Below, piece by piece: positions 27,208 to 50,900 of a DNA stretch of 64,000 bases. The number at the start of each line of letters is the position of its first letter. Positions within the stretch are counted from its first letter, which is position 1. Under the pieces are notes generated by a model, which was not told the origin of the DNA, ran no database searches, and saw nothing but the letters and a program-made list of their open reading frames with translations. A program made the translations under genes and the position numbers. The stretch comes from Amphiscolops sp. MND2022 (lineage: Eukaryota). The stretch lies in assembly GCA_964187785.1 (NCBI GenBank), contig OZ076409.1, positions 22,880,001 to 22,944,000 of the forward strand. Direction: 5' to 3'.

Positions 27208-28936
27208 TTTTATTATGTTTATCTAAAACTTTCTTGTGGATGTTGTATTCGGTTTTTATCAAGCTTGTCGAAAAAGAACATCCAAAATTTGGTGGCAAAC
27301 TAGAACTTTGAAGTTTTGCAGGTTTCGTTAGGGAACAGTTTATTTGAATGCAACTAAGGTGTTATCATTTTCACCGTCATTGTATTGCGAACTGACTTCA
27401 GTCACAATGTGTAGCTTCCAGCAAAAGGAGCATATATTAGAGCCGGAACAGGGCCAAGGTTACTTGGACAGGAGACATAAGTTTTTCTCTGGTTTACATA
27501 CTCCCCGGTCCGTAGTTTGTCGTCCTCAGCAAAGCAACCCAGAGTAGATGTCCATATTCTAGTTGTCGTCCAGTGATACTGCAGGAATCTAGAAGTTTTT
27601 ACCAGCCTACTCGGCTTTCCTAGGTTTTTTTCTAGATGTGAGTTATAGCAACATGACTCCAAAAAATTAAAAAATCTAGCATCATTTTGAAGGCGTCATG
27701 TTTGTTTGGGGGATTGATTCGGATGGCACTTTACTAATTAGTGAGGAAAATGTTCGCGATAAACTTTAAATTGCACTTTTTATGTGGTTAGCTTGGTACC
27801 AGTTTTAAACAGAAAGTGCAATTAGTTAGCACCGGTTTTTAGTTTGGCTTTGTTAACATGTGTTGTTTTGTCACCAAACTTGTGGACGTTACAATGCAAC
27901 CAATAAACTAGCGTCTTATTCAGCGTGACATTTGAGAAGCGGTGGTTACATCAGATGACTAATTGATATACAAGAGCTTGAGAACAACTTGATCGTGTCG
28001 TTAGCGAAAAGGGAAGTATTTTTGAATATTTTAAACGTAATAGTCTCAGCAGCAGCGTAATTTTGCTAGATTTAAATACCACATAAAGTTTACTGAATTT
28101 TCTACATTTTCTTTCAAGTTCGTATCATTCAATGTCTTGTCAGAAATAGAATGGGATTTCAACTGACCAGTGTCGAATTTCAGCATCTTTTGAAACGTAC
28201 AATCCTAACACTGTTTTCTGATAAATCTCATAAGGAATGACAAGCCGGGAAATACTAACGCGCTAAACTCTCCGTAAGAATGTCAGAAAAACAATAAAAA
28301 TTGCAGGCAAGTTTGAAGAAAATTCGAATGTCAAGAAATTGCAACAAGTGTAAATACACGTCAAGTGAAAATTTACTCCATGTTTTTCGTAATGTATATG
28401 AAATATAGACTTTACCATTGTAATGGTTTTGCGTCAGCCTTTTTCATTCGTTGCGTAGTGAGCAAAATAGCTCTACCAAAATCTCTAAAAGATAATTTTC
28501 GTAGGCGATGTGGGCGAAAAGTTGGAACACGAGCGCTATAGGCAGATGGAGATGATTTCGAACCTGGGCAAGACTATCTTTTTGGTGCAGGATGGTAATA
28601 TAGTAACGGCCATAGAACGGCCAAAGTCGGCGCTATATCTAAGGCTCAAAATTGTAAAAGGGGGACCCTTCGGGCTTTGTGAAACTCCAGCTGGTTGCAA
28701 AATATGGAAAAAAATTGAGGGGGAGCCCTTTGGGGACTTGAAAAAATTTCCCAAAAAAATTGAAAACTGAGATTTTTGAACAGTGTCACAGTGCCAAAAA
28801 AATGTAAAGGGGGGGCCCTTTGGGATTTTTTGACATCCATTGTGTTGCAAAATGTTGAAAAAAAGGAGGTTGACCCTTTGGAGCAATCCAAAAAGTTTTA
28901 AAAAAAGTCGCATAGTGCCGAAAAAATAGGGGCTGT

Positions 28937-30457
28937 TGTCGCGGCCACAGCGTTGCGATGGGTCCGGTGTGCACCAGTAAGAAAACAAACAACGCTTGTT
29001 AAAAACTTCCAAAACCCAAGGACTCATTTGCAAGTCATGTAGTTTGTTTGTTTTGTAAATATTTGTTGTAATCAGGGTCATTTAGTTGATTTATTTTGTA
29101 AAACTGATGTCTTAAAATGATTTGCCAAACCTTAAGAGGATTTAATGATGTTTTTAATTATTCCTGATGATCCTAATGCAGTGCTAATAGTTCATTTTAA
29201 TTAAGCAGTACCAATTGTATACGACATTGTGCGTTTTGAGTGCTAATGAGTATGCGGTACTATGCGCATATGCATCTTTCTGATTTTCATTATGCGTCAC
29301 TATGCGGTTTGAACAGTGACATTTACTCGACACTATGCATCTTTCTAACTTTCATTATACGTCACTATGCGGTTTGAACAGTGACATTTACTCGACACTA
29401 TGCATTTTTCATTATACGTCATCCTGCGGTCTGAGGAACAATGAGTGCTCGGTACTATACGTTTTTCGCTATGCTTGCTTTAATATGAAGGATTAACTTT
29501 GCATTTCCATATACAGTAGTATAAGTCCATGATATATCATTGTTTAACACCTTTCTAGGGTATTATAAACCTCGTTATCATTTCTGAATGTCATGGAAGG
29601 TAACTCATGAGATATAAATAGGATGACGACATTCTGACGAAGTGCTATTATTAGTTTTTCCTAAGAATGATGCTTGTAAAATTGCGTGTCATCTTTTGTA
29701 ATTTTGTACTTTCTTGGGGAAAAAGGAGCTAACACAACTGATATAACTTTCTTCAGAACCAGTTTGTTCTCTGATAACGATTACAATCTTTGTGCTACAT
29801 TTTGGGATCTTTGAACATTTCAAATTGATTTCCTTTGAATATTTGTCTTCAATTCAAATTCTTGACCCTGCAAAACAATCATTTTCTCTTGAGCGAAAAT
29901 GGGCAATAAGAGAAGTAGAAGGTCTAGAAGACTAGAAACTCCTTCCCCTAGCAGAGAAGAAGGTGTTGAAACTCCAAACCCAGGTAATATGACTTTAACT
30001 AATTCTAACTTAGTTGACCAAGAAAACTTAGGTCCCAATATCTTGGAGAATCAAATAACTGAACCCAGCGTAATTAGCAATGAAATACAAGTTTGGACAC
30101 AAGAAATGGAAAAGAGAAACAATGACAGAATAGAGAAGATGAGGGAGGAGATTCATAATAAATTCGATGCAATCTTAAGAGAAATCAAAACTAGTAAAAA
30201 TGCATCTACAATCACAAACCCAAGATCAGAATCTAATGAAACACAAAACAATCAGCCGTCGGGATCCAGAAATAGGTCTATAGGAGTTCGCGCATCAGAA
30301 AATGAAAACTCTGATTCTGAAAATGAAGATAATCATCCCATCAGAGCATCGAACATGCATGAATTAAGAGACCCAGCAAGACCCTTTTGCCAAAATAGAT
30401 TTGAACTAGATGAAACATTAGTTTCAAATGAAGACTCTGAGGAGGAGGATTATCACA
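28937..30457 (+). repeat. Element A 5' LTR
   Basis: TGTCGCGG...TATCACA; direct repeat of 43453-44973 with about five substitutions seen by eye. Candidate TATA box TATAAATA at 29613-29620; 57-65-bp tandem units at about 29270-29460. Confidence 0.97.
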
Positions 30458-31578
30458 TGGTGACAGGAGCTAACCGACAACTCCATAGACACAGTTCGCA
30501 AAACCCACAGTCTCTAAACGACACAACAGGATCCCACGCAGCCCAGAACACAACAACTTCATCTGCAACACCCCTTGACCCAGTCAATCAAATTGCCCTG
30601 GCAATAGAAAAATTAGCAAACAAAAATGAATCACAAACATTCTTTCACCCAAAAAACACACTCACATTTAATGGAAAAAATGAGAAAAATGAAAAATTTG
30701 AGTATTTTGAGGACTTGTTCCACACAACACTCAGAATGCAACCGAATCTTACAGAAGACATGAAAATCAATCATTTCCACGCCCACCTGAGAGGCCTGGC
30801 ACTGAAAACGTTCAAAAACATACAAAGAACGCCCACAACAACCTTAGAAGACATTCTCAAAGTTTTCCGACGAAAATACGTAAAACCGGAGTCCAGCGCA
30901 TCTGCCAAACACAGATTCAATAGACTCTTCTTTGACCCCGAAAATCAAAAACTCCCGGATTTCCTTGAAGAACTTGAGGAAAGCGCTGAAAAAGCGTTCG
31001 GGACTAATGCGCACCAAATGATAGAGAATTTACTCTACGCTAAAATGCCTCCCCACCTCAAAAAGTCCATTAATCAAGCATACCTTGAAAACGGCACATA
31101 CAGCCAAATTGTCAAACATCTCGAACGAGAGATGGAACTCAATGGATTGGAATCCGATGAATCGCTGGTCAAAACACAGATGACCGCAACTAAAAAAGAA
31201 CACAAAACAGACAACACTAACAAAAAACAAACAAACAAAACCAAATCACAAACGCCAAAATCAGTCCCAAACAAGACCCTCAAAGATGGCCAATGCCGTT
31301 ATTGTAAAGAAGAAGGCCATATGATGACTGATTGCCCCAAATTAGCCAAACGACGTAAACTTCAGGAAGATCCAGATGCAGACAAATGCGAAAATTGTAA
31401 CACCCCCGGACACACTGAAGAAAATTGCTACTTTGGCGAGAATATGGAAAATCGCCCACCCAAATGGAACCTCACAGACGCCCAGAAAAAAGTAATCGAA
31501 AATTACAAACAAGCCAAAAAACCCATTAAACCTAAAATGGAACAACTCCAACAATCCTCTTCGAAGGATTTAAACTAG
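29899..31578 (+). CDS. gag: Gag polyprotein (559 aa), first 186 codons inside the LTR
   Basis: Capsid-like region (TFNGKNEK...FEDLF) and two CCHC knuckles, CRYCKEEGHMMTDC and CENCNTPGHTEENC; homologous to 55760-57448. Confidence 0.93.
   Translation: MGNKRSRRSRRLETPSPSREEGVETPNPGNMTLTNSNLVDQENLGPNILENQITEPSVISNEIQVWTQEMEKRNNDRIEKMREEIHNKFDAILREIKTSKNASTITNPRSESNETQNNQPSGSRNRSIGVRASENENSDSENEDNHPIRASNMHELRDPARPFCQNRFELDETLVSNEDSEEEDYHMVTGANRQLHRHSSQNPQSLNDTTGSHAAQNTTTSSATPLDPVNQIALAIEKLANKNESQTFFHPKNTLTFNGKNEKNEKFEYFEDLFHTTLRMQPNLTEDMKINHFHAHLRGLALKTFKNIQRTPTTTLEDILKVFRRKYVKPESSASAKHRFNRLFFDPENQKLPDFLEELEESAEKAFGTNAHQMIENLLYAKMPPHLKKSINQAYLENGTYSQIVKHLEREMELNGLESDESLVKTQMTATKKEHKTDNTNKKQTNKTKSQTPKSVPNKTLKDGQCRYCKEEGHMMTDCPKLAKRRKLQEDPDADKCENCNTPGHTEENCYFGENMENRPPKWNLTDAQKKVIENYKQAKKPIKPKMEQLQQSSSKDLN
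30458..30472 (+). promoter_or_regulatory. Primer-binding site (probably tRNA-Leu type)
   Basis: TGGTGACAGGAGCTA directly abuts the LTR-terminal CA and is identical over 15 nt in element B (56310-56324). The tRNA identity is inferred from similarity to TGGTGTCAGGAG. Confidence 0.8.
31569..31575 (+). promoter_or_regulatory. -1 ribosomal frameshift slippery site U_UUA_AAC
   Basis: X_XXY_YYZ heptamer in gag phase immediately before the gag TAG; the -1 frame is open from here into pol. Confidence 0.85.
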
Positions 31579-34500
31579 AAACGCCACGCCTTAACAACAC
31601 AAACGCCGAAATAAAACCACAAGATGACTGTCAGCATCAAGTGGAAACAATAAATATTCAACTTAAACGACCGACTACCGAACCTGAACCTACTCCTCCA
31701 ACTCCTGTTCAATCTGAAACTCCCAGCACCTCTCCAGATCAATACTACGAACTCTTGAGAGATGCACCAGACAACTACTTCACAAAACAACAAACCCATC
31801 CTGAAATTGACCCAGACCTCAATATTCACCACGATTCACCTATTAAAAATCATGTCACTATCAAAACTTCTTGCAATGATCAAAAACAACCCCTTCTAAA
31901 TGAAGACCTAGCTGAACACCTACAATTTGACAAAGAACGCAACTTGTCATACCTACCAATTTCAACATCCTTGACATTGAAGCGCAAACGACATATGTAC
32001 TACATTCCAATGGACTTCCAAAACCTCACACTTGATGGTCTTATTGACACAGGAGCTCTCACAAGTGCAATCTCCGAACAAGACCTCAATAAAATCAAAT
32101 TGCTCGCAAACGATGCGATAAAAGAAACTGGTCCTCCACCAAACTTTCAAATTATGGTGGCAAATGGACAACTAGAAGTCCCCATTGGTACAGTATTACT
32201 AGAGTTCGAAGTCGCAGACTTCATGTTAAAGGAAAACTTCATCATCATGAAAACTCTACCAAACCCGCTCATCGGATTGTGTTTCCTTCGCCGAAACAAT
32301 GCAATTTTCGATGTCACACAAGGAATCTTAACCTTTCCTTACCTCTCAATGCAACTGAAACCCGATACCCAAACAGCAATACGGCAAGCAACACCATTGT
32401 TTGCAGAAAATACCTACACACTCAGGCCAGGCGAAACACTCGCTATAGCAAGCAAAATGCCTCACCTGATGGACCATAATGCAACTGGAATAGTCACTCC
32501 ATCACAACAATTTGAAAACCACGATAGTATTTTTATTACAGCATCACTTAGCACAGTTAATAATAATTCTATCGGCTACCAGATCATCAATTTTTCAGAA
32601 TTGCCATATACAATAACCACTGACACCCATTTAGCGGATTTCAAAATTCTGACCCCAGAACAAATCAAACACATCCAACCAGTAGACCCAGCAGTACTAT
32701 CGTTTATGATACAACATGAAGAAACCACCGAAGTCTACATCAACGAACTCCTCAAAGTACCACAACCAAATTCTGAACAAGAATCGTACTGGTTTCCTAC
32801 CCCAGACGACCCAGGCGATCCCGCAACATATACTCCAATACAACAACGTATATACAATGAACTTCTTGAGTTAAAAGAACTCGAAAAACTGAATCCACAT
32901 GATAATGAAACATCCAGGAAATCATTCCTCTCAAATTTCGACTGGACAGATACAACACTTAGTTCAGAAGAACGACAAGAGATTGAAGAGATTCTGGTCG
33001 AATTCCACGACATTTTCGCCAGACATCGCTTTGATATCGGTATAAACCGCGAATTCAAAGTCAAATTAACACCCAACGACGACAGACCAGCTTACAGCCA
33101 GAGTCTGCCAACTCCAATCAACCTCAAAGATGACATCACAGTAGAACTTGCGCTTCTACACAAGTACGGTATAATCACAACTCTACCGTTTTCCAAATAT
33201 GCAAGCCCGATTTTTGCACAACGCAAACCAAACGGGCGCCTTAGACTCCTAGTTGACCTCCGGAAAATCAATAATCTTATCACTGAAGATTACGCCAATA
33301 ATAACCACCCGGTAAGCACCCTATCTGACGCAGCCCAACACATGGCAGGAAAAAAGCTTTTCTGCAAACTGGATTGCTCCCAGGCTTACCACTGCCTCCA
33401 AATGGCCGACTACCAATCTATCCAAATGCTCGCGTTTAACTTTGCAAGCAGAACATTTGCTTATCGACGCCTTGCCCAGGGTCTCAGTCGATCTCTCTCC
33501 GCATTTTCCAGCTTCATGAGAGAATACCTAGACAGAGCAATTAAAGCAGATCAATGTGCCCAATATGTCGATGATATCGGCATAGCAGCAAACGACACAA
33601 AACAATTGTGTATAAACATCAAAACTGTTTTTGAATGCATCCGGAACGCCGGACTGAAACTCTCCATGTCGAAATGTCATTTCGGAGTCAAACAAGTCGA
33701 CTTTTTGGGACGCACAATCACACCAGATGGAGTTGCCCCTCAAGCCGACAAAGTGAAAGATTTTTTGGCAAAACTCAAATTCCCAAAATCAAAAAAGGCA
33801 CTTCAAAGGTATATCGGATTCTTGAATTATTACCGAAACTATATACCTCGCCTTTCAGAACGACTCACCCCGTTTTTCAAACTCCTCAAAGAAACCTCCA
33901 AATTTTATGTCCCTACAAACTTGGTCGAAGACTTTACAAACCTCAATCAATTTTTGGAAAATTCTTGCCAACTCGCGCTGAAACAACCCTTGAAAGACAA
34001 ACAACTCATAGTCATGTCCGATGCAAGCTTCACAGCTGCAGGATATGCCATCATGATTGAAGACGATCCCAACCAGAAGCTTCAATCCAAACGAAAAACC
34101 TACGCACCCATTGCGTTTGGATCAAAAACGTTCAATCCAACACAAACGAAAATGTCAATTTATGCAAAAGAATTCCTCTCAATATATTTTGCATTCGTAG
34201 AGTTTGGACACCTCATGTGGGGGAGTACCTTCCCTGTCATCGTGTTCACGGATAATCGGTCTGTAACCCGGTTTTTTCAAACGAAAATGATTCCTCCAGC
34301 GCTTTGGAATGCATGCGATTATGTACTACAATACAATTTTGTAATCGCCCATGTAGCTGGATCGATGAACACAGCCGCCGATTTCTTATCTAGAACCGAA
34401 AGTAACCCAACCGAAAAGCTCGAAATGACAATTCGCAACGATATTCACACAAAAGCAATTGAAGTGATTATACAATCAACTGGAATTGTCGAAGAAGAAC

Positions 34501-36464
34501 AAATTTACATCCTTCCTGATGAAGAAATCGATGAAAATCAACTATGGGAAGAAAAACAAAACACTCGCAATCAAGCACAAAACGAAACTCACAACGACCC
34601 AGAGAACGACGTCTCTGAATTACAGCAATTTCACAAACCCACATCCGGATTGATCTCCTGCTCCTCTGGACACTTCAAGGACAATGCGAGGATACGCCTT
34701 GAACAGAACAATGACATAGTCCTTCGAAACCTGAGAGCCAAAATAGAAGGCGAACCGTTTGATGAAAACGAATTAGCTTCCGATTTCAGATATCAACACT
34801 ACTTACAAAACATAACACGAATCGAGATTAAACACGAAGTTCTCACACGCAAATACTATACAGATACAGGAATGATCTCGCATTATCAAATCCTCTTACC
34901 AATCCAACTTCTTGAAGAACTACTTCAAGCCCTCCATGGACATAACTCAAACCATCCAGGAATTACCAAGATGATTCAAGAAACACGTCAAAAATATTAT
35001 TACCCATGTATGGCCAAATACATAAAGAAATGGGTCAGTAATTGTCAGATTTGTATACAAACAAAACGTATCAACAATGATCTCCTCAGAACCGAACTCC
35101 TTAATTGTCCCGAATGGGACCTTGGACCGGAAGACATCTTACAGATGGATATTTTGCCAAACCTCCCCCCAAGCGGAGGCTACGATCACATCATCACAGC
35201 AATAGATGTCTTCTCAAGGTATTTGTTTGCTTATCCTGTGACTCGAATTACCGCAACAGCAGTTTCAAAAGTCATAATGGATATCTTATGCAAACACACC
35301 TACCTTCCAACAACTATAATCACGGATCTAGGCACTCAATTCAACGCACAAGTCACTCATGAAATTGCGGCAGTGCTTGGAATCGAAATGAAACATGCCA
35401 CAATGAAACATGCACAAACCATAGGACTCTTAGAAAGAACCCATGCCTCAGTTAAAACACACCTAAAAGCCGCCACAGGCGAATTCAGGAACAACTGGCA
35501 CAAATATCTTCCTCTAGCAGTCCTTAATCATAACACAACATACCATGCATCACTCGGTTGTGAACCCTCACGAGTTTTCCATGGCCGCATACCACACAAT
35601 ATCCTTGACTACAAACTTGGATACAATCCAAATCCGAGGTATCAACCACAAACTGACATTGCAGAAGAAATTCAAAAGCGCATGAGAACACTTTTAGACC
35701 AAACCAAAAAGAATATCATGCAATCTTACCTAAAATACAAGGCCTACTACGATAGAAAAGCAAAAGCAGCCCAGTTGGAGACAACAGATTACTGCTATAT
35801 TCTTAATCCAAAAGCCGATACACAAGCAACGAAAATACCATTCCGAGAATTCAGATGGTGTGGACCTTATAAAGTTGAAAAAGTGCTCCCTAACAATAAC
35901 TACATTGTGAGGAGACTTGGCACAAATAAAACCCAACTACTACATCGGATTCGTTTGCGGAAATTCACACCGCAGGCCCCTTTAGCAGACATTTTTGTTC
36001 GCGAAACCGACTGGCAAAAAGATGATCAAATGACTATAGCAAATGATGATCTATATGCCCAATCATGGAACACGAATTTTGGAGCAAATCCATTTGATGA
36101 CATTCCCTCAGATGCAATACACAATACTGAGGATACCGAATATGTCCCAATTCAAATACCCGACAATAGCCGCCCACCCTCCCCAGTATCTTCAAAAAAT
36201 AGCGGGGGGAGCCCAGTGGATCAGACCACTGAACCAGATCAAAATCACGGAAATCATGCTGATGAAATCCCACAACAATCAAATGATGATAATACCCAAA
36301 AAACCCGAAAAGATGTAAATAACGCAACAAACAATGATAATCAAAAAACCCCAGAAAACTCCCAAAATACCCCATTGCAAGAAGAACCCATAAATACCCG
36401 TGGTGAAAAATACAACCTACGTCCTAACCCCAACCCAAATTACTCTGACACTTATAGATACTAA
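31569..36464 (+). CDS. pol: Pol polyprotein: aspartic protease, dUTPase-like segment, RT, RNase H, integrase (intact)
   Basis: LIDTGA; KLDCSQAY and YVDD; SDASF/KEF/TDN/AADFLSR; H-x5-H...CQIC, MDIL, TDLG, LER. Uninterrupted frame. Confidence 0.97.
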   Translation, partial: FKLETPRLNNTNAEIKPQDDCQHQVETINIQLKRPTTEPEPTPPTPVQSETPSTSPDQYYELLRDAPDNYFTKQQTHPEIDPDLNIHHDSPIKNHVTIKTSCNDQKQPLLNEDLAEHLQFDKERNLSYLPISTSLTLKRKRHMYYIPMDFQNLTLDGLIDTGALTSAISEQDLNKIKLLANDAIKETGPPPNFQIMVANGQLEVPIGTVLLEFEVADFMLKENFIIMKTLPNPLIGLCFLRRNNAIFDVTQGILTFPYLSMQLKPDTQTAIRQATPLFAENTYTLRPGETLAIASKMPHLMDHNATGIVTPSQQFENHDSIFITASLSTVNNNSIGYQIINFSELPYTITTDTHLADFKILTPEQIKHIQPVDPAVLSFMIQHEETTEVYINELLKVPQPNSEQESYWFPTPDDPGDPATYTPIQQRIYNELLELKELEKLNPHDNETSRKSFLSNFDWTDTTLSSEERQEIEEILVEFHDIFARHRFDIGINREFKVKLTPNDDRPAYSQSLPTPINLKDDITVELALLHKYGIITTLPFSKYASPIFAQRKPNGRLRLLVDLRKINNLITEDYANNNHPVSTLSDAAQHMAGKKLFCKLDCSQAYHCLQMADYQSIQMLAFNFASRTFAYRRLAQGLSRSLSAFSSFMREYLDRAIKADQCAQYVDDIGIAANDTKQLCINIKTVFECIRNAGLKLSMSKCHFGVKQVDFLGRTITPDGVAPQADKVKDFLAKLKFPKSKKALQRYIGFLNYYRNYIPRLSERLTPFFKLLKETSKFYVPTNLVEDFTNLNQFLENSCQLALKQPLKDKQLIVMSDASFTAAGYAIMIEDDPNQKLQSKRKTYAPIAFGSKTFNPTQTKMSIYAKEFLSIYFAFVEFGHLMWGSTFPVIVFTDNRSVTRFFQTKMIPPALWNACDYVLQYNFVIAHVAGSMNTAADFLSRTESNPTEKLEMTIRNDIHTKAIEVIIQSTGIVEEEQIYILPDEEIDENQLWEEKQNTRNQAQNETHNDPENDVSELQQFHKPTSGLISCSSGHFKDNARIRLEQNNDIVLRNLRAKIEGEPFDENELASDFRYQHYLQNITRIEIKHEVLTRKYYTDTGMISHYQILLPIQLLEELLQALHGHNSNHPGITKMIQETRQKYYYPCMAKYIKKWVSNCQICIQTKRINNDLLRTELLNCPEWDLGPEDILQMDILPNLPPSGGYDHIITAIDVFSRYLFAYPVTRITATAVSKVIMDILCKHTYLPTTIITDLGTQFNAQVTHEIAAVLGIEMKHATMKHAQTIGLLERTHASVKTHLKAATGEFRNNWHKYLPLAVLNHNTTYHASLGCEPSRVFHGRIPHNILDYKLGYNPNPRYQPQTDIAEEIQKRMRTLLDQTKKNIMQSYLKYKAYYDRKAKAAQLETTDYCYILNPKADTQATKIPFREFRWCGPYKVEKVLPNNNYIVRRLGTNKTQLLHRIRLRKFTPQAPLADIFVRETDWQKDDQMTIANDDLYAQSWNTNFGANPFDDIPSDAIHNTEDTEYVPIQIPDNSRPPSPVSSKNSGGSPVDQTTEPDQNHGNHADEIPQQSNDDNTQKTRKDVNNATNNDNQKTPENSQNTPLQEEPINTRGEKYNLRPNPNPNYSDTYRY

Positions 36465-36682
36465 AAACAACTGACAATCCCTGACTCATTACTAGTACTC
36501 AGAAAACAAATACAGAAGAAACTCTCTTTTTTATCCTTCCTTTTTCAAATCAGCACTACGAGTGCGTTTCTTCATCCTGTTCTCCGATTCCTTTAACAAA
36601 TAAATACACAGGATACAGAGTAACTCAACAATCAGAAAACTAAAAGAAGATTATAAATATAACAAGATAATGCAGACAACAG

Positions 36683-39600
36683 TCAGTTTTTCTTGCTTTT
36701 CGGAGCTTTAGCAACCACTCTCTTTGAAGTGCCCTCTTGGGTCGACTCTGAGCAACGACTAAGACTAACATTAAGTGTACCCAATGAAGGATCAGGGGAT
36801 GGGGAACTATGTACACTGCTGCGGCGACTCACACTTGGAGTTGTTGAAGTAGAGGAAACGGTAGTTTTCTCAGCACGTAGCACAGCTTGTCGGTAACCAG
36901 TTTCCAATTTACCTTGGAGAGAAGTTTTCCGGGCATTGCTTCCCTTCAGGAAATTCCAAACCGAGAACTTTTTGTCCAATAACAAATCAGTCCCACGTCC
37001 CAACAGGCGAAAAGCACGGCTGATCGCCTTGGAATTTCGAAATAAGCTGGAGACGTGTGGCACAGTCTGATATGCTACCTGAAGACTAAACACACAAGAT
37101 TCAAACGTATGTTTATCCGACTCAAGATCTGGCATAGGTACCTTGAATGATGGCGGTATTTCCACGAATGGAACTAAACAAAGACACGAATGTTTGAATA
37201 GTCGCATCAACTCGGGTCTACACTGGATTTCATAATGTTCAACGACAAACTGAATCCAATCATCATGCTCTGGTACGGGGCTTGTCCTCAGCTTGGTTAC
37301 GAAGGAACGATACTGGCTTATCTGCTTCACCTTGTCACTAGAAGAGAATAGTCCGGTAGAAACAAAATGTGAAGACAACTTTTCAATCGCATCAACATAC
37401 ACGTCTTCTGGGCTCTCGAGCATCACCGAGGAGTCAAAAGCAGAGAGTCCCCGCAACAACTTTGACTTTACAATCCCGTGACCCATCAACTGTTTGCAAT
37501 AAGCCTTGCAGAAACTCACTGACTGGTCAATAAAATTGCTTGGCCGAGGGAGTTTACTTGAATACACCAAACGGTGAAAATCCTCATTCAAGACGAAGTC
37601 GTCTGCTGTTTTAAACGGCAAATTAGTTGAATCCAGGTCCAAATTAAGATAAGAATCCCATTCCGAGATATTTCCCAAAATGCTGTCAGGAAGAATGTTC
37701 TGCATCTGACTGTAGATAAAAACCGCAAATTGGTTGTATATGCGGAACCCTCCATCAAGTCGTTTCTGTATGTCCGAAAACGCCGAAGTATCTAAAACAC
37801 ACAAAAATCATCTATTATAGAAACCACGCATGCCTTCATGAAGAAGAGAACTAATCACGCATAGTACACGCTTTTGATAAGCTTGATTAAACACATCATA
37901 TAGCTCAATGTATAAACACCAGGGCTATAGGGCTTTACGCGGTTCAGAGAACAATGAATACTCGACACTATGTTGAGTAGGAGATATTGACTATGCGGTC
38001 ACTATGCGGAACGAGTAGTAGTGATTATACGTCACTATGCGGAATCAGCAATGCAGCTGGATTTGGGAGTTCTGAGCAAATACGATTGGTCATACGCAAT
38101 TATGCGGATTGAGAACTGATGATTACTCGTGATTATTCAGAAGAAAACAAAAAGCACGTGTCACTTATGATGAGTTAAATGAATGACAATCCTGATGTTC
38201 GAAGTTTTGGAATGAGATGGTACTTATAGTACATTACTCCAAAAAGAGGAAAACAACGTAACAAAAGATGAAACCGCTGTTATAGTATAAAGATAAATTG
38301 ACTAACAATGGTCAAGGACACATCTGATAATGAACAGACGGGCCAGATAAGCTGTGTCTAGACGAAAACACTCGTCCAGCGTATTGGGCTGAAAGGGAAA
38401 AGATTAAGAAATGGATTCAGATTACAATGGAAGGAGCTGGGATAATAATACCTACCTCTCTCATATGGAATCGATAGATAGGAAGGCAGGCAACTTGTTC
38501 TAGGTGATCCTGCACGTGATTCCAGTTGTTGGAAAGCTGCTCAATCAAAGAAGAAGCTTCAGAAAGGGAATAGCTCAAGTTTGTCACACACTAAACAAAA
38601 TAGGGGAAGATGTGCAAAACATCACAATGGAAAAGAAAAAAACCAAAGTTGAAAACCTACTTTGTGCAGAAGGGGTAATTTCTCCAGCCAATCTCTGTCT
38701 AGCGCAGTCCGCAATTTCATCAGTAAATAATCCAAGATAGAACGAAAATCGTGTCGTTCTATGACCTGAGCGGTAGGGCCTGCTAATGTTCGCTCAAATT
38801 CGTTCGGTCCAAATGGGTTGACAGTCGAAGGGGGCTTTAATCCGGGCAAACAAGACGATAGACAATCATTTAATTTGTCACTGAATCCAATGAGGGATAC
38901 ACAATTTGGGAATGTTTCGAACAGACTGAGAAAGGAAGCCACGAGAGAAAGGACTTTCCTTGGTAATAACATTCCCCGAGGGGCGCCCCCTATGCACACT
39001 CGATACAGCACATTCTCGGCCCAAAAGCAAAGAATAACGTATGTGGCAACAGGAGTATGTTGTATGGCCAATGAATAGTACCCCGAAGAAGATATAGACC
39101 GTACACAATAGTCCATGAGTTCTCGGAACATGTAGACTATGATACCCTGCAAACAAAGAAAGTGTTAAGGTATTGGAAAATGGGGAAACCTTCAACTTAT
39201 AGTGTAACTTCAAGGTAATTGAAACTTTTAACGAAGGAGAAAGAATATGGTTAAATCATTGTGTGTTAAAAAATTCACAAAGAAACTTACGAAAAGACGT
39301 TCATTGCTCCAGTTCTGATACGATAGCCGATCACTTGCTGTAAGTCTGACCAACTCGTCATACATTCCGGTCAAACTGGCGACGTTACCTCCGTGCCTTA
39401 ACCCAAATTCCAGAATGTTTATCTGCGAGAATATCTTTTCAGTTGGGGTTGTGGAAGCACTAAAATCGGGTACTGAATCTTGTCCTACTAGAGGTCGGTA
39501 CGTATCCAATTGAGGAGGAATTGGGTAGGTGTCCTTCGCCTTCTTTTTGGCTTCCTGTAGTGAAATTCCAAGCAATTCATGTTCGTCTTTGTCGTAAAGG

Positions 39601-40994
39601 GGCATTCCTGGAATCTCCATGCGGATTCAGTGTTCCCTTACTAGGTGAGATTCGGACCTGTAATGGGATATCAGTTCCAGACTCCCACGACTCATCAACG
39701 ATAATTCAACACGGCACACCCTACACCACCACTTGTAAGGTGATAACTCTTGATCCAGTGGACCTGTGGCAGAGAATTTCAAAACTGGGTGTCTTTTAAA
39801 CATACTACCAGTTAAGGAGTATCTAGGGCGGCGTCGTTTCCCCCGTACTTCAGGGAGATTACGCTCTGAGTAAGTCGGCGCAGTTCTTGAAGTAGATTGG
39901 ACAAGTGCTTCTTCTTGGCTTGATGTAGTCAATAAAGCAGATTGCGGTACATCATCCACCAAAGTAAGTGCCATAGTGTCTCCACATCCAGTCTCTTCTC
40001 CGGTGATGAAGGCTTGTGGGATCCTCCCAAGGAAATTGTGGAGAAATAAGACCTCCTGTCGAGTTACACTAACATTGGGGAACTCTGATCTGGGAATGTT
40101 ACCCAAGCCTTCCGTGTCATGACCAATTGTTTGTCCTTGGTCATTAGCCGTGCTAAGAGAAACCGTGGTTTCGGGTATCTGCCCGGTAGTGAATCCTGTT
40201 GCACCATCCTCACTAGGAGTGACGTACTGTTCAAACTGAAGAGAATGTATTTGAGAATTACCCTGCGTGATGAAATCATCAAGTACCCCTTGAGGGAACG
40301 TCGTCATTGGCTCATTCATAGCTTTCGTTGGGGTAACGTTCACAAATGGCGGCGAATTACTTCGTGAAGCTAAATCCCCTTTTTGACTTGGGTTACCCTG
40401 GGAAGTAACTCCAGGAGGCTCTGTGGATGTATGTCCACTCGGTGGCTCACCTGCTACTTCTTCATTGATCTGCAAAGTTGGGGTATTGGGGGTATCCACT
40501 TCCTCTGTAGCCTTAGAAGTCTGTGGAGTCACAACGTTCAAAGATGTGTAGACTTTGGCAGGAGAGTTGTTTGAAGTGGTTTGGACGTTTTGGGACGATC
40601 CTTGTTCAACTGAAACAATTGATCTGTTGATTAACAAAAGAACAGATTTCACAAGCAATAACCGTTCTTAACTGCCTTGAACCGGACGCGGGGACAGGAA
40701 ATAAAATTGGAACGGAAGTTGTTTTAAAATTGGAAGCGGAAACGTTTCAAAAAATTTGAACTTGACAAAGATAATAATCTTGTCATTTTCTTTTTGCTAG
40801 CCTGGCCAGCTTTGCAAATCAACCAAATTCAAAACAAATCAAAATGAAACAGAATTAAAACGAAATACGTTGAACTTACGGGATGACGTCTCAGGCGGCG
40901 GATCACTGTGCCAGAAGTCGTCACGTTGCAGAGGATCATAACTCTTCCGGGATCTTCTTTTCCCTCCGGGGCTTCCCTCTTGTGGTGAATCCAT
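36683..40994 (-). CDS. Antisense six-exon gene, about 1081 aa, Zn finger plus hAT-transposase-like body; one in-frame TGA at 39627-39629
   Basis: Exons 40994-40880, 40609-39291, 39146-38661, 38590-38456, 38388-38307, 37791-36683. All five introns are GT..AG with pyrimidine tracts; phases 1,0,0,0,1 join in frame (3246 nt, 1082 codons). WWCRVC...LISHYRSESH motif. The last exons are homologous to element B. Confidence 0.82.
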
Positions 40995-42440
40995 TCTTTT
41001 TTACAGAACCAGGAAGTAATTCAGGAAAATTCTGATGCAAGCTCAGGGTATTTGTTCCAGAAGTGAACGAGGAGAAAATACAATAGATCAGAGTAAGGAA
41101 ATTGAAAACAGATAAAAGGGGAACTAAAGATGAAGAATCCAAGATTTGGAAGATTGTGTTTAATATACTAGAACTTTAACTGAACAGACTAAATGAACTG
41201 GTAAGAAACTTGAAGATTCAAAAGAAACAGTAAAAGGCGTGGCGTAACGTAAATGCAATAGACAAAGGCAAAAGAGCAAGTGAAACAATTGTGCGCAAAT
41301 ATGCGTAGAGAATACTGCAATATGATTGGCTGTTCAAATGTCAATTACGTCTGCCAGCGTAATTGATTGACTCATCTGACTTCTGCCAACAACGTTGGTA
41401 TACATATATGCTGAATGGAATGAATTAGAAAGCGAGAGTATGCGGCAGTATGCGGATCTACCACCAACGACCACTCGACAATATGCGTATTACTGATTTA
41501 AATTATGCGGCAGTATGCGGATCTACCAATGATGGATATACGGCAGTATGCGGATTGAGCATTGACGTATACTCGACATTTAGCGGTTTTCGCTGTATGC
41601 ACGACAGAGATGAATTAACACCGTAGACCAACAAGAATGAGCAAATGGAGTGATATTACGTAATGGAACTGAAGAAACTGTGTGTTTACCACAACTGAAA
41701 GTTGAGTGGCAATATTGATATACTGTATACGTGCTTAGTTACCCTCTTTAATGACGTTTAGCCTGTGATACCAATGCCCATTTGGAACCAATATGTATGT
41801 ATGTAATAATTTGAACTGTTGGCGTTTTCTGAAACCCATAAATCATTTACCAAGAGATACTGGAATTCACCCGGAACATTAATTAACTGTACTTGCATTT
41901 TAAATGCAGGACTAACATTATTGGGTGTCTTTCCTAATGATAAAATTCAACTCACTAACGGACCTTAGATTAGATTGGAACACGTTTATTAACATCCTTT
42001 TCCTTTTATAAAATAGTCATGTAAAATCAAATAAATTGATTCTGAATTACTTTATTGAATATTTTCATGAAAGTATTTTGTTTTCAGCATCCCTGATATC
42101 AAGTCAAATTTGTTTATGTACGATTTAAATACTGGTGGAAGGTTAAGAAGGGTGATGATAAAAGGAAATCAGTTGGAGTGCTAAACGTGTTACCTTTTAT
42201 GGAAGTTGTTTATGACCAATTGTAAAAGGAACTCGTGATATGAGTCTAGGTGGAAACCCCATGTAAGGGTGTTTAGGAACCTAAAATCATGACTCTCAAT
42301 TTTTCCGCGGGTTTTCCGCTGAAAACGAAAAGTGCGAGAAACTCCATCATCATATGGTCCATATTAAACTGTGATTCAGTTGCTTTCAATTTCGAACTCT
42401 ATTTCTGTTCATCTATAAATTTTCAACTAAAACCTGAAAA
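40995..42440. promoter_or_regulatory. Candidate internal bidirectional promoter region between the antisense gene and ORF X
   Basis: Non-coding interval between two divergent ATGs, with clustered TATGCGG / ACTCGACA motifs (41436-41590) also found in the LTR. Function is inferred. Confidence 0.5.
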
Positions 42441-43496
42441 ATGGACTCACTGCAATTTAATCTCGATGAGGATCTGGGCTACTCACCCATCTCCCCTGAC
42501 GTGATAGACATCTCCAGTGAATCTGGGGAAGAGTTCATTGTTGAACCTGGCAACATTGCCCAGCTAGACGAAAAGTTCAGGGTCAATACAATGGGATCAA
42601 ACATCATGACAGCTTTTGTGGGCTCTGCAACTGCTTCTTTGTTCCCCCCTTCAAACTACGTGGGACAACAAGAATCCATCAATACTGCAGGAACCCACAT
42701 CGAAAGGGAAATCATGGAGTTGATAGAGGAGGGCCCTTCCTCTTCTCCAGCATCTCCGCTGTCTTTCATCGATTCAGAATTCGAAGGACCGGGTACTTCT
42801 CCAGTAGCAATTGCCGCAGAACCCAGAGCACAGCTTAATAATTATGGTCGGCCAACTGCAGCAATACTGCCCACACCAAGGGTCCCATTGCAACCGCCAA
42901 ATGAAACTGTTAGACCAGTGCCGACTTACCCTTCAAACTATGTGCAGAATGTCCCTAATTCTCACCAAGCACAGACAGTGGACACAAGCACAGAAGGGGC
43001 TACTAACGTACCAACATATGAACTACAAGGAATTTATCCGCAAGCCGCATTCATCCCAGAAGAATTAACACACCCTGTTACGAATGACATTACACCAGTA
43101 GTGATACATCTGCCCCCTAGAAACATGGGAATTGTCCCCGCCAACTTCAATGGTCAATTCCACCAAGTAGTCCAAGCTGGATTTCCATTCAACATTCTAC
43201 ATAGTACTAACATCCTTATGATACCAGGCAATGAGAGACAAAATTTCAGATTGTTCCCAACAGTTATGCCAAACGTCTCCGGATATTGTGACTGGTGTGG
43301 CCGTACCTTTGATCAAGTCGCACTGGAAACATTGGGGGACTATCTTGGCGCTACCGCTTACAACGAGGAAACAGTCAGGGACCGTGGGGTGCGTTCTAGA
43401 GCCTTCATAGATGGTTTTGAAGCGGCGTTGTTTATCTTCAAAAATGCAGGTCTGTCGCGGCCACAGCGTTGCGATGGGTCCGGTGTGCACCAGTAA
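42441..43496 (+). CDS. ORF X, unknown accessory protein (351 aa), ends inside the 3' LTR
   Basis: ATG-initiated long ORF in AT-rich DNA: acidic/Ser N-terminus, Pro/Gln-rich middle, C-terminal CDWC...CDG region. No obvious signal peptide or TM helix. Confidence 0.75.
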   Translation: MDSLQFNLDEDLGYSPISPDVIDISSESGEEFIVEPGNIAQLDEKFRVNTMGSNIMTAFVGSATASLFPPSNYVGQQESINTAGTHIEREIMELIEEGPSSSPASPLSFIDSEFEGPGTSPVAIAAEPRAQLNNYGRPTAAILPTPRVPLQPPNETVRPVPTYPSNYVQNVPNSHQAQTVDTSTEGATNVPTYELQGIYPQAAFIPEELTHPVTNDITPVVIHLPPRNMGIVPANFNGQFHQVVQAGFPFNILHSTNILMIPGNERQNFRLFPTVMPNVSGYCDWCGRTFDQVALETLGDYLGATAYNEETVRDRGVRSRAFIDGFEAALFIFKNAGLSRPQRCDGSGVHQ

Positions 43497-44973
43497 GAAA
43501 ACAAACAACGCTTGTTAAAAACTTCCAAAACCCAAGGACTCATTTGCAAGTCATGTAGTTTGTTTGTTTTGTAAATATTTGTTGTAATCAGGGTCATTTA
43601 GTTGATTTATTTTGTAAAACTGATGTCTTAAAATGATTTGCCAAACCTTAAGAGGATTTAATGATGTTTTTAATTATTCCTGATGATCCTAATGCAGTGC
43701 TAATAGTTCATTTTAATTAAGCAGTACCAATTGTATACGACATTGTGCGTTTTGAGTGCTAATGAGTATGCGGTACTATGCGCATATGCATCTTTCTGAT
43801 TTTCATTATGCGTCACTATGCGGTTTGAACAGTGACATTTACTCGACACTATGCATCTTTCTAACTTTCATTATACGTCACTATGCGGTTTGAACAGTGA
43901 CATTTACTCGACACTATGCATTTTTCATTATACGTCATCCTGCGGTCTGAGGAACAATGAGTGCTCGGTACTATACGTTTTTCGCTATGCTTGCTTTAAT
44001 ATGAAGGATTAACTTTGCATTTCCATATACAGTAGTATAAGTCCATGATATATCATTGTTTAACACCTTTCTAGGGTATTATAAACCTCGTTATCATTTC
44101 TGAATGTCATGGAAGGTAACTCATGAGATATAAATAGGATGACGACATTCTGACGAAGTGCTATTATTAGTTTTTCCTAAGAATGATGCTTGTAAAATTG
44201 CGTGTCATCTTTTGTAATTTTGTACTTTCTTGGGGAAAAAGGAGCTAACACAACTGATATAACTTTCTTCAGAACCAGTTTGTTCTCTGATAACGATTAC
44301 AATTTTTGTGCTACATTTTGGGATCTTTGAACATTTCAAATTGATTTCCTTTGAATATTTGCCTTCAATTCAAATTCTTGACCCTGCAAAACAATCATTT
44401 TCTCTTGAGCGAAAATGGGCAATAAGAGAAGTAGAAGGTCTAGAAGACTAGAAACTCCTTCCCCTAGCAGAGAAGAAGGTGTTGAAACTCCAAACCCAGG
44501 TAATATGACTTTAACTAATTCTAACTTAGTTGACCAAGAAAACTTAGGTCCCAATATCTTGGAGAATCAAATAACTGAACCCAGCGTAATTAGCAATGAA
44601 ATACAAGTTTGGACACAAGAAATGGAAAAGAGAAACAATGACAGAATAGAGAAGATGAGGGAAGAGATTGATAATAAATTCGATGCAATCTTAAGAGAAA
44701 TCAAAACTAGTAAAAATGCATCTACAATCACAAACCCAAGATCAGAATCTAATGAAACACAAAACAATCAGCCGTCGGGATCCAGAAATAGGTCTATAGG
44801 AGTTCGCGCATCAGAAAATGAAAACTCTGATTCTGAAAATGAAGATAATCATCCCATCAGAGCATCGAACATGCATGAATTAAGAGACCCAGCAAGACCC
44901 TTTTGCCAAAATAGATTTGAACTAGATGAAACATTAGTTCCAAATGAAGACTCTGAGGAGGAGGATTATCACA
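43453..44973 (+). repeat. Element A 3' LTR (contains a second copy of the gag leader ORF 44415-44996)
   Basis: Direct repeat of 28937-30457, followed by TSD GCTGT. Confidence 0.97.
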
Positions 44974-47505
44974 GCTGTGGGGGATCCTTAGTGTGATTTC
45001 GAGGTTCTGGACGTCTGTTTTGTTTCTTGTTTTTTTCGTTTTGGACGCGCTTTTGAGGTTCGAGTTCGAAGTTGTTGAGGTTTGACGTTGTTGAACAAAT
45101 GAACAAAAAAGTGGACCTTACGCGTCTAAAAAATATAAAAAACTACCCACTGTAAGAGTCGGGTACATTTTCTACTAAAATGCGCCGACTAAAAAAGGGC
45201 ATTACATATCGAGATTGACTTCAAACGAGGACCAGTGTTTCGGATTTCAAAGTTTCCAAAACTATTTCCATACCACGTCTCCCTTCAAATGTTTTTGAGG
45301 CTCATACGCTGTCACTCTTTGTTCTTCCCTTGTTGAACATGCTTGAACTTTTTTCATGTACTTTAATGTTGCCAGCAACTTTTGTTATGATAATCTAAAT
45401 ATCTTACGGAAACTTTAATGCGTTAATATTTCCCTGTTGTCGCCAACTTTTATCAAGCTGCTTTAAAGAATCATCAAAGTTTTGGCGGCAATTTCAAGCT
45501 GTGAAGTTCTGCAAGTTCCAATATGCATCAGTTCTAATTTTAAATGCAGCTTAGACCTCAACAATTTTGCCGCCTTTTAAATGCAAATTAACTTCATTCA
45601 CAATGTAAACAGCAAACTAGCGTCATCTTCAGCGTCCTATTTGAGACGCGGTGATTGAATCAATAAAAAAAGGGATCACAACGTGATCGTGTCCGTAAAA
45701 GAAGGGGGAAATATTTTCAAATTTAATTGCAGTAATGGAAAATGCAGTGTAATTGTACAAGATTTACCACCGGAACCTTACTGAATTTTCTAGGTTTTAT
45801 AAAAAATTACCCTGCATGCAGGCCTGCAGCATGTAAATAGTTCCAGGAGTCTCAACTAGGGTTATATTTTCAAGTCGAAATATTTAGTCCTCATGCTACT
45901 GTTTTGAAGATGTAACTGAGAGATGCATTCATGCACCCTAATGCTAGCTTGTCAGCAATATCAATAGTACGTTATTTTCAGTGAAAGATAATCGGCAACA
46001 ATTTTTCGGGCATTAATCAATTTTTTTTCGTAATCACAAAAAAATAGAATCTTGTTTTTTATGATTCAAATTATTGGATTTTTAATTGCTAGATATTTTA
46101 GTTTATCGGCGACTCTTTTTTGACGCTCCGTGGAAAATTGGCGAATTCGCACTTCGTTGAACTGTGAAGCCATTGGTTACTTTGCGATAAGTTTTCCACC
46201 AGCAATTTCGAACCAATTTTGACCAAACACAACATTTATGAAAGGCATTATCAACGGCTTCATGATTCCACGCACGTTTTACGGTCTATCTCAGTTATGC
46301 AATCTACTGAGATAACTGACTTCATGTCAGCAATGAAAAGAAACGTAGTCAAGTAAAAATATGTTACGTTCTCAAAAACCCTACCAGCTTATTGAAATCG
46401 TAATGTCAAGATCGATGGTTAGACTTTGAACCATATTTCGATAGATCAATGTTGCATTTGCCGTACTTCAGATGTTGGATTTTTATTGAGTTCTGAAGAA
46501 TTCTGAAATTATCAAGTTAACTCAGCGTTTAGATTTTATTAATTATGAATAGGGATATGAAAAGTTCTTCACAATACAAAAGATAAAGTGAATACAATGA
46601 AGTAAAATCCGAAGTGCTATGGAACTATCAAAAATTTAAACCCTAATTCAGAATGCAAAGGTCATCTAAGGTGAACAGGTCCTTGTGCTTCAAGCCCCAA
46701 GAGGCCACAGAATTTCCATTTGAGTTTAAATCGAAAAAATATCTTGAAAAACTGCAAAGTGTATGAAGAGTGTATTTTCATGGCAGCAAAACGTGAAACG
46801 TGAAGACTTCTCAAGAATTAATTTTCTAAAGAAAGACTACATGAAATCAAAAGATAAATTCAACATTCAACGTGCTGACTTAGCGTTCGGATGGATTTCC
46901 TACATCAAGATGCCAGCAAAAATTTAGGGTTCTTCAAAAAGGCTACTGGAGAAAATTTTCATCGATCAAATGATTTTTTGTTGACTGGCTAGACTTTTTG
47001 TGGCACCGATACATTTCTTTACAGTTGAAAAATGTTAGCTGAACTAACAATAATTGTATGCAATAACCCATATTGTTTTCCAAAATCTGTGAAATTAGCA
47101 AACTTTTTCGGTTAATCAAAAAAATTAAACATGATTTAGCATTCTAAAGTCACCGAGAAACGCTTTTGCAAAACTCATTTACAAGCGAATTAAGAAATTC
47201 TTAGCCTAAACGACTCTGTCTGCTGAGAAGTTAGAGTGCACACAGACTCGAACAGTATGGTTGCTCTCATTGACGTGAAGTCAACATTTGATTCGGTAGA
47301 CCAAAGCTGGCTCCATGCAAAACTAAAGCGCTCCAAATTACTCGAATATGCAGAAAATTTGCTATCTTCGAGACTATCATTAAAATTCGTGTATCAGGTG
47401 CCAAAGGTCTCAATTGAAGCGAAATGAGTAAATTGTGTCCACGAGGATGAAATTTGGGACCATTTTTGTTTTTGATAATTACCGTCAATATTATGGTGAA
47501 TCAAT

Positions 47506-47968: not shown

Positions 47969-50900
47969 TGTGTAGAGGACATACGAACTTACTTAGACTG
48001 TAGAAACTAATTAGTTTGCTTCCCTATTTGTATATATTTATTTATTAATACTTGATTAAAGTACCAGCCCTGTCACATAAGCGCAGAAGAAGCTATACGC
48101 TTAGTGATACAAAAGAATAGTGAAAAACAGCTAAATTTTAAAACATTGAGTTTGAGTTCCTTCTCTTTACGAGTATATCAGGAATACAACATGGCGCAGT
48201 CAGAATAACGATCAAAGTTACAAAAGATCATTGCGAAAGCCTAATGGGCGACAACACAAACGCCACCCAAAGGAGGCACCAACATTACGTCGGTGGAATT
48301 ACAACTAAGTGAACAACTGCTACCAAACGACACGATGAACCGAACCGCAGAACGGAGAAGCACCCAGAAGCTTACCAATCCAACACTGGAAAAGAAAGGC
48401 TCCACCAATGTGGTAGTGGAAGTTTGTACAAAATATAAAAATGACAAAGGACCTAGACCTATCAACAAAGACAAACAATTAGGAAATACTGCCACAATTC
48501 CGTGATCAATTAGAAACAGAGATGAAAGACAATATTCTGTGGGCAATTGGACAGAATGCTATCACGGAACTGACCAAAACGGTTAGAGATAGAGTGAGAG
48601 AGCCGAGCTCACTACCGTTGTACAAATTACATACATCATTCCGACTACATTTCACACCGGAGAGAAACGTTCAACACAGTACAGCCGACTTTTCGACTTG
48701 AAACGGAAAGACGGAGAGTCCGCGGCAGACGTCCGGAAGTGGATATTGGAAGTAGATAAAAACTGCAAATTCGAGACAATAACCGCAGAAGAACTCTTGG
48801 CATCAATATTCCTATCCGTAATCGGCAAATCGATAGGAGACTACGACTAAAGAAAAAAATCAGAAAAAGTGACATGTCGGTGGAGGGAATTACCGAAGCA
48901 TTACATGAGTACATGTACGAAAAACAAAACGACTCACCAGAAACAATATGAGAAGAAAATCCGATATCTCAATAAAAGAAAGACCAGAAGCACCAAAAAC
49001 CAACGGATAAACCGGGTAATTTCAAGAAACCAGACTGCTATAGATCCGGAGCCTCCAACTGGTTACGAAATCATGAAGAATAAGCTAGGGGAAGGAATGT
49101 TCGCGAATTGTTGCAGAACAAACAAAAGAATAAACCGCATACAATAACAGGAAACAAGTAGTGCGGAAGAAGACTATTGGTCACCGTCACAACACAATCC
49201 ATTCCGAAAATCAGAAGATCCATTCAACACGCCCAATGAAGAAGGACGGTCCGGAATTCTTCACTCTCACCGACAGCGGATTACCGGTAATTTTGATACC
49301 GAATTCACGGTTTAACAAAATAACAACATTGAAGCCGCTTGAAACCGAACATAGAGATGTAAATGACAACGGGATGAGGTTCGAAGGAAAATCGCAAAAG
49401 TAGAAAAAGATGGGAAACAAAAAATGTTGAAAATCCTGATAACGATAAAAAAACCAACTCACTATTAGGCTTAGCTTAGACTGGATGGGAAAATTGGGAA
49501 TAACGCTGGGTACTGGTAAAACCGATCCACGAATAAATTACATAACTGAAGATCCGGACATAACAGTACTCAAAAAAAAGTTCAAAATGTTTTCGTTGGA
49601 AATCACACCGTAAAGGACTCGAAGTACAGATACCATTAAAAGAGGACGCAAGACTGATACAGCAAAAAGGAAGGCCAATACCAAATCACCTACAGCAATT
49701 GGTCGGAAAGAAAGTGACAAATTAATGAAACAAGGCCATATCGCGAAAACAAATAGCATTGATGAAATTTGCTTTGGTAGCACGGCCGTAATCAATGTTA
49801 AGAAGGACACGTCGAGAAAAACTACTCTGGTTTCGCGAAAGTTGAATGAAATCACCAAAATGAGAAAGGCACAAACGCCTTACAAGGAGGAATTTTTTTC
49901 CAGAATTTCCAGAACGATTGTGGAACAATCGGCAAATGAAATATGGATATCAAAGTTTGATTTGGACTACGCTTGCGGGCAACTACTATTGTCCAGGAAG
50001 CCTGAAAACTGTGCATATTTGCCGTAACCGGTGGACATTTTACAATTACTACCGTTTCCTGAAAAGATTTTACGGGTAGCGGATATTCCGACAATTTTTC
50101 AGGAGACAATCGACCAAACACTGGAGAACTTTCATCTGGCATGGTTGTATGACATAATCGTCGGAACAAAGGGCTCACAAAAACAACACAAAAAAGAGTT
50201 AGTAGACGTTTTAACCTGACTAGAAATAGCTGGATAGAGCCTCAGCGAAAACAAATCCGAATTTTTCAAAACAGAGATTGAATGGATTGGCCATAAACTA
50301 GACCAAAACGGAATCAGATCACTACAGGACAAGCTGATGGCAGTTAAAGATTTGAAACATCCCAATAACGAGAAAGAACTCAAATAGTTTCTGGGGGCCA
50401 TCCAATATCTGTACAATTAGATAAACAAACGGATAGTCTGAGACAACTTCTTAAAAAGATACCGAATGGTTATGTACAGAATAACACACGCAAGCGTTCG
50501 AAAATCTCAAACAAATGATCAAGGAGTACTCATGTGTCGTAACTACAACTCAGATTATCCAAAAGTTATAACAAACGACGTCAGCACTAAAGGCCTCGGT
50601 GCAACGCTTTGGAAAGAACAGCTGGACGGAAAGCTAGAATCAATCGGTTTTGCAAACCGATTTTGATCAGATACCAAGAAAATATGCAATAAACAAACTC
50701 GAATTGCTAGTCATTGTCTGGGGACTAGAACATTGTCGTTTAAACATTTACGGCAAACCGATAGAAATGCTCACGGATCATCACGCACAAGAACCACTGA
50801 TAAAACGAAACCGGTATAACAAAACGTATAGCGCACAGCTAACGAGTTGGCTGGACCGATTAGCACATTTCACCATTAATGTGAACCAGATCGCAGGCAA

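Follow-up and report, generated by a model that had tools for sequence, protein, structure and literature searches.

We describe a Ty3/gypsy retrotransposon whose gag frame opens deep inside its own long terminal repeat (LTR) and runs through the LTR end and the primer-binding site (PBS) into the capsid; as far as can be judged from sequence, this frame very probably yields one long Gag protein. The element, here called A, lies in a 64,000-nucleotide stretch of DNA from Amphiscolops sp. MND2022 (contig OZ076409.1), referred to below as the window and used for all position numbers, together with a second element of similar layout, B. The LTR-encoded part of Gag, 186 codons in A and 183 in B, is termed the leader.

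Results

Element A and its gag frame

Element A is a young Ty3/gypsy element of 16,037 bp (28937–44973). It is flanked by a perfect 5-bp target-site duplication, GCTGT, at 28932–28936 and again at 44974–44978 (no strand assigned). Its 5′ LTR (28937–30457, plus strand, 1,521 bp, TGT...ACA) and 3′ LTR (43453–44973, plus strand) are 99.67% identical in an LTR-to-LTR comparison, with 5 mismatches; A thus has the two direct LTRs with TG...CA ends and the duplication in the 4–6 bp range that mark gypsy elements. The pol frame (31536–36464, plus strand) overlaps the end of gag and carries protease, RT, RNase H, and integrase in that order, as does pol of B (Pfam; the protease match lies under the curated cutoff), and the Ty1/copia order, with integrase upstream of RT, was not found by Pfam in either element. 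Within Gag, Pfam reports zf-CCHC (E 1e-5), corresponding to two CCHC-type knuckles, and capsid matches to Ty3_capsid (E 0.004) and Retrotrans_gag (E 0.009), both under the curated cutoff; the AlphaFold2 model of Gag contains a helical region of capsid size.

The gag ORF of A occupies 29899–31578 and encodes 559 amino acids, with an in-frame stop three codons before its start. Its first 186 codons (29899–30456, plus strand) and one further base lie inside the LTR, and the identification of this leader draws on the ORF, its relatives, and AlphaFold2. The last LTR base and the first two PBS bases together form an in-frame ATG (30457–30459, plus strand) that encodes Met187, as placed by the LTR boundary and the frame. 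From there the rest of gag (30457–31578, plus strand) encodes a linker, the capsid, and the two CCHC-type knuckles recognized by Pfam. The PBS core of 12 nt (30458–30469, plus strand), classed as tRNA-Leu-like by tRNA-end comparison, begins with TGG at the LTR end and is read as M-V-T-G-A, giving A the junction peptide YH-MVTGA. It matches each of three tRNA-Leu 3′ ends at 10 of 12 positions, these ends being those of other animals, which may differ from the tRNA of the host (PMC13524379 supplement).

Element B repeats this arrangement. Its gag spans 55760–57448, with a leader ORF of 183 codons (55760–56308, plus strand), a junction ATG at 56309–56311, the junction peptide SY-MVTGA, and, from 56310, the same PBS core as in A; the 3′ LTR of B falls outside the window, and its LTR end was placed from two relatives, P0452 and P0454, that diverge right after SY. 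These coordinates bear out the preliminary description of this DNA, which had gag opening deep in the LTR (186 codons in A and about 183 in B), an in-frame ATG arising at the junction, and a PBS encoding MVTGA in both elements. The leader frame stays open in only 1 of 20,000 base shuffles, and the other five frames across the leader contain 6–31 stops in A and 7–25 in B. The leader ORF recurs in the 3′ LTR of A (44415–44996, plus strand), where 186 codons without a stop are followed by 7 codons of flanking sequence. About a third of each LTR is likely protein-coding.

Other features of the two elements

All five differences between the LTRs of A fall within the last 670 of the 1,521 bases (29788–30424), and three of them lie in the leader, one silent and two residue-changing. 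The U3 of A contains a 65-bp tandem repeat (29269–29410), a 68% alike copy of which is found internally at 41482–41558. No clear purine run precedes the 3′ LTR at 43400–43452, a stretch that lies within a sense ORF of 351 aa (42441–43496, plus strand) lacking a Pfam match. The last 14 or so codons and the stop of this ORF are inside the 3′ LTR, and thus both LTR junctions of element A lie inside reading frames. An env-type ORF was not recognized by Pfam among the four extra ORFs of A and the one of B that were scanned.

Antisense ORFs occur at 36683–40667 and 62614–63786 (both minus strand) and may be exons of one antisense gene. For a 340-aa antisense ORF, element B contains a homolog (26% over 116 aa, E 7e-9); the antisense ORFs scanned gave no Pfam match, and their ESM Atlas matches were all below 0.9 (best 0.87, a lead only). 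A dUTPase-like stretch lies between protease and RT, at 58223–58500 in B (Pfam E 3e-5) and at about 32370–32650 in A, where Pfam lists none. The protease-containing frame of B (57478–58341) is separate from its RT-integrase frame (58223–62377), and A has one pol frame. A decayed gypsy-like element elsewhere in the window carries a tandem 2,344-bp unit (49213–54526), present as two full copies and part of another that are 97–99.7% alike.

Predicted structure of the leader

The leader of A combines a basic tip (residues 1–19), a predicted helix (residues 56–103), and acidic linkers predicted to be disordered. AlphaFold2, run on a 40-sequence alignment, returned a mean pLDDT of 53 and a pTM of 0.23. 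The sole confident part of the leader is a predicted 48-residue amphipathic helix (residues 56–103; 30064–30207, plus strand), with pLDDT 79–92 over residues 61–100 and conservative replacements; confidence is low in the rest of the leader and at the junction. Its hydrophobic spacing makes a coiled coil the likely form of this helix, in agreement with the basic start and coiled-coil-like segment noticed earlier. Foldseek, run with the low-confidence model of whole Gag, gave no match at E 0.001, a PDB sequence search returned only zinc knuckles at good E-values, and the best ESM Atlas score for the leader was 0.76, a lead only.

Transcription and processing signals

A motif scan identified a candidate TATA box at 29613 and an initiator-like TTAGT at 29651 (29613–29655, plus strand), the latter 38 nt from the TATA and somewhat far; the TATA candidate at 29613–29620 put forward in the preliminary description is therefore present as a motif. 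In B, a TATA-like TATATATAA is found at 55604. An ORF scan of A found an upstream ORF of 21 codons (29667–29732, plus strand), located after the candidate TATA and ahead of the gag ATG; with its counterpart of 24 codons in B, such uORFs start 54–57 nt after the TATA. Start context is strong at 29899 in A and weak at the first ATG of B. Together, the uORFs and the weak ATG context of B argue against simple scanning and would allow for splicing or reinitiation.

An unlikely alternative, for which the sequence nonetheless offers candidate signals, is that the leader is translated not on genomic RNA but on a distinct pool of spliced or trans-spliced RNA. The T-rich stretch before the ATG (29687–29836; 62 of 150 bases T) would then be an intron or outron whose removal takes away the uORF, and pyrimidine runs terminating in AG do occur, one at about 29757 and another immediately ahead of the ATG. 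Both elements have uORFs, but short uORFs often permit reinitiation, and B lacks a comparable acceptor beside its ATG. A precedent is BARE, for which separate RNA pools are reported in the available part of one account (PMC3735527). A separate pool is compatible with translation of one long Gag and departs from that explanation on the template only.

The sole AATAAA in the LTR of A (30157–30162, plus strand, motif scan) is a candidate poly(A) signal and lies within codons 86–88 of the leader. Of 72 full-length relatives, 66 have NK and 5 have SK at the residues that it encodes. If this hexamer is the poly(A) signal, the leader would span R and U5, the 5′ copy would need suppression, and transcripts ending in the 3′ LTR would be without a stop.

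The junction ATG

It was also proposed in the preliminary description that two Gag isoforms might be made, with the LTR ATG and the junction ATG as their respective starts. A short capsid-only Gag, made beside the long one and regulating assembly as Ty1 p22 does, would fit the near invariance of Met187, its position about 40 residues before the capsid, and the G at +4, and a shortened Gag translated from an internal transcript is described for Ty1 in the accessible portions of two reports (PMC4974528, PMC9283973). However, an ATG is automatic wherever a CA end meets TGG, and we rejected the invariance of Met187 as start-codon evidence for this reason. A stop inside the PBS closes one of the other two frames, leaving only two frames ever available, and the base at −3 of the junction is C. 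Furthermore, leaky scanning in its plain form is excluded by the ATGs that intervene between the two starts (14 in A, 17 in B), and an internal promoter, a splice, or an IRES would be required. With its ATG forced and this many ATGs intervening, the two-isoform proposal was not upheld, and we consider a regulatory short Gag improbable.

Frame retention and selection

Relatives were studied as predicted proteins, not as DNA. Related DNA loci were not found in metagenome, viral, or prokaryote collections, and one low-share sequencing run (X1) yielded 25 short contigs, mostly less than 90% alike. A leader-anchored search, which selects for intact leaders, listed 120 of 125 relatives at 40–100% identity to the leader, with MVTG in 116 of the 120. 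A capsid-only search is independent of the leader; among its best 120 of 3,003 matches (lengths 205–653), a list that favours young copies, a full leader was present in 90 of 119 non-self matches. Breaks in these best 120 of 3,003 affected 29/119 on the N side (226 codons), an upper bound given that gene callers may choose a later start, versus 33/119 on the C side (139 codons). N-side and C-side breaks co-occurred (odds ratio 3.5, p 0.008), the pattern that post-insertion decay would produce. The leader decays no faster than the nucleocapsid end of Gag. Frame conservation across copies, named in advance as a check on the coding claim, thus came out in its favour, with breaks no commoner in the leader than at the Gag C-terminus.

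Nineteen representatives below 85% leader identity showed a mean identity of 63% in the leader versus 92% in the capsid; by block, leader identity was 85% at residues 1–19, 71% at residues 56–100, 48–63% elsewhere, and 95% at the junction. Leaders of relatives are 174–193 codons long, with 15 distinct in-frame gap placements. Under a neutral model at 59–69% identity, a non-coding copy would stay open in 3–13% of cases, counting substitutions alone. BLOSUM62 scores of replacements were −0.01 in the leader and +0.64 in helix residues 56–100, versus −0.38 to −0.53 in the neutral model, for 18 of the 19 representatives (P0140 left out). This is a test of selection at the protein level, not dN/dS, and its pairs are related, non-independent, and drawn from open frames. 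Read in this way, the comparison indicates that purifying selection acts on the leader as coding sequence throughout the lineage, and the retained frame and conservative replacements across relatives support the original claim that the LTR part of gag is coding.

Breadth across families

At least 10 divergent families carry leaders of 114–223 residues. Eleven further proteins, with 31–71% post-junction identity to A, have complete leaders in this range (114–223 residues), with 4–8 K/R in the first 20 residues and a negative net charge, and there are two more families besides; in the four families with the shortest leaders, the LTR end is placed by the motif alone. A profile search of 50%-identity representatives returned mostly fragments among its best 150 of 2,182 matches. 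From these best 150, 146 were new, 113 without the junction and 33 with it; of the junction-bearing set, 22 have at least 30 residues upstream, 2 have fewer, and 9 have the junction at the record start (one of them a mis-hit). Five looked-up records with the junction at their start each form a cluster of one member, and records of this kind may be decayed copies or may stem from a leaderless family. BLAST detected no similarity between the leader groups (A-like, B-like, and shorter types), the leaders of A and B included, and we infer a common origin of these two leaders from layout only. The relatives returned by these searches included no named element. Across the proteins compared, the gag-in-LTR layout is lineage-wide.

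These data bear on whether the leader is instead a non-coding or relic stretch of the LTR that is open by chance, with Gag starting at the junction. Most of the leader is predicted to be disordered, and it diverges faster than the capsid, both of which would suit a relic. Yet the frame is kept far above the neutral expectation and the replacements are conservative, Met1 and the basic tip are conserved (the 85% block at residues 1–19), and long leaders recur in at least 10 divergent families. Frame retention, replacement pattern, and spread over families have already largely refuted a chance origin of the frame, which we regard as highly implausible.

The LTR end in relatives

A search with the leader only (186 residues) found 316 short proteins at E 0.001 or better. 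Among the best 120 of these 316, 79 pass into unrelated tails right after YH, 26 show an MVTG-type continuation, and 15 end earlier. The tails are short, with a median of 18 residues in an earlier parse of 77 tails that included some mis-parsed rows. In 78 of the 79, the tail begins with T, N, S, I, K, R, or M, residues for which an A-first codon is possible (binomial p about 1e-30 versus codon counts), and the LTR end is thus fixed at that base family-wide. By this reading of the protein records, the leader-only ORFs with unrelated tails represent 3′ or solo LTRs whose frame continues into the adjacent DNA. The same break point is seen in the cluster of B and in two other clusters, and this divergence of ORFs at the LTR end agrees with the earlier view that the LTR end and PBS are read within gag. 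Among 463 proteins, the residue before MVT was H in 186, D in 18, Y in 14, and N in 2, accounting for 220 of 220; these are exactly the residues of NAC codons, consistent with an ACA LTR end.

Five proteins (P0028, P0091, P0141, P0150, and P0463) have MVTGVG or MVTEVG in place of MVTGA, in most cases followed by unrelated sequence. They likely represent a PBS recopied from the tRNA-Leu primer in plus-strand synthesis, in some cases integrated with the LTR end; the sequence behind the MVTGVG reading is what we take to be that of the tRNA-Leu T stem. Tandem in-frame repeats of the LTR-end-plus-PBS motif were observed in P0266, P0270, P0277, P0279, P0285, and P0316, members of divergent families. 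These six cases were read by eye; an automated pattern was too loose, with many DVTIH false matches.

The view that the repeat arose by segmental duplication or misassembly and takes in part of gag, the true LTR being shorter, has in its favour the length of the LTR and the want of a clear polypurine tract before the 3′ copy, but it is refuted to the point of being negligible by the TGT...ACA ends, the perfect 5-bp duplication, the directly adjoining PBS, and the break of 78 of 79 independent leader-only ORFs at one base.

Discussion

We propose that transcripts begin close to the TATA at 29613, upstream of 29899, which would place the leader in R-U5. The leader would take over the role that an N-terminal coiled coil ahead of the capsid has in Cer1 and other gypsy Gags; it may act in assembly, and its basic tip may contact RNA, membrane, or import factors. 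A disordered, tolerant linker would accommodate both the integrase end and the primer site. Because the linker is predicted to be disordered, the forced residues H/D/Y/N-M-V-T-G should cost the protein little, and because it is tolerant, constraint on the junction would come mostly from the nucleic-acid side, with Met187 as a by-product. With regard to origin, we speculate that, most likely, an already existing Gag received the LTR end and primer site in its linker as these shifted downstream, rather than gag having grown upstream. Tandem junction motifs in six proteins suggest, again speculatively, that the end-plus-primer cassette may duplicate in the linker, offering a route for such a boundary shift.

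The rule given in the preliminary description, that gag starts after the PBS and R-U5 is non-coding, is overstated, with Ty1 as an exception in which GAG is described as starting upstream of the PBS (PMC5454406, in part). In the available text on Ty1 RNA, the 5′ UTR occupies nt 1–53 and the PBS, at nt 95–104, lies within GAG (PMC5454406, PMC4974528). As in that account of Ty1, the gag frame of A opens ahead of the PBS, continues past the LTR end and across the PBS, and includes residues encoded by a short PBS. The two differ in extent: about 13 codons lie in the Ty1 LTR as described there versus 183–186 here, making the LTR part about 14 times longer in our elements. They also differ in content, since the accessible sections of these two papers describe no folded domain in the LTR part of Ty1, whereas the leader has a predicted helix. 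Ty1 is moreover a copia element primed by initiator tRNA-Met, whereas A is a gypsy element with a tRNA-Leu-like site.

A second point of comparison is Cer1, a Ty3/gypsy element of C. elegans. The portion of its description available to us reports a predicted long coiled coil before the capsid, in place of a matrix domain, and an LTR of 491–492 bp followed by a 5′ UTR extending beyond nt 1175 (PMC10309623). By that description, the Cer1 coiled coil is encoded outside the LTR, whereas the leader helix of A is encoded inside it, and the likeness is one of domain type. No gypsy element with a long coding R-U5 came up by title or abstract start in a literature search that covered older and subscription literature and Repbase reports thinly. 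The length of the leader, its predicted domain, and the stop-less ORF in every 3′ or solo LTR thus appear new, and a prior description is possible.

A bolder reading, which we hold to be doubtful, is that each LTR is a self-contained gene with its own promoter, ATG, and stop-less coiled-coil ORF of 186 codons, so that hundreds of 3′ and solo LTRs would make capsid-less leaders with random host tails. If this were true, leader proteins would co-assemble with full Gag and limit copy number, in a mirror image of Ty1 p22; each insertion would seed chimeric host proteins; and the AATAAA in the helix codons would be a switch for making leader products. In the parts of the reports at hand, Ty1 p22 is described as a shortened Gag, missing the N-terminus and expressed from an internal promoter, through which the element regulates itself (PMC4974528, PMC9283973). 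Relative to p22 as described there, the anatomy of A offers the opposite piece as a candidate product, a leader without capsid from 3′ or solo LTRs.

In sum, and returning to a single long Gag read from the LTR ATG, an LTR can hold a selected domain of almost 200 codons and yet serve as integrase end and primer site, and a coding LTR of this kind likely doubles as promoter and poly(A) unit. Annotation that seeks gag only between the LTRs would shorten these proteins by a third. Each 3′ or solo LTR leaves an ORF running into host DNA, and the lineage bears on two questions: whether animal gypsy elements encode control of their own copy number, and whether LTRs act as starting points for new genes.
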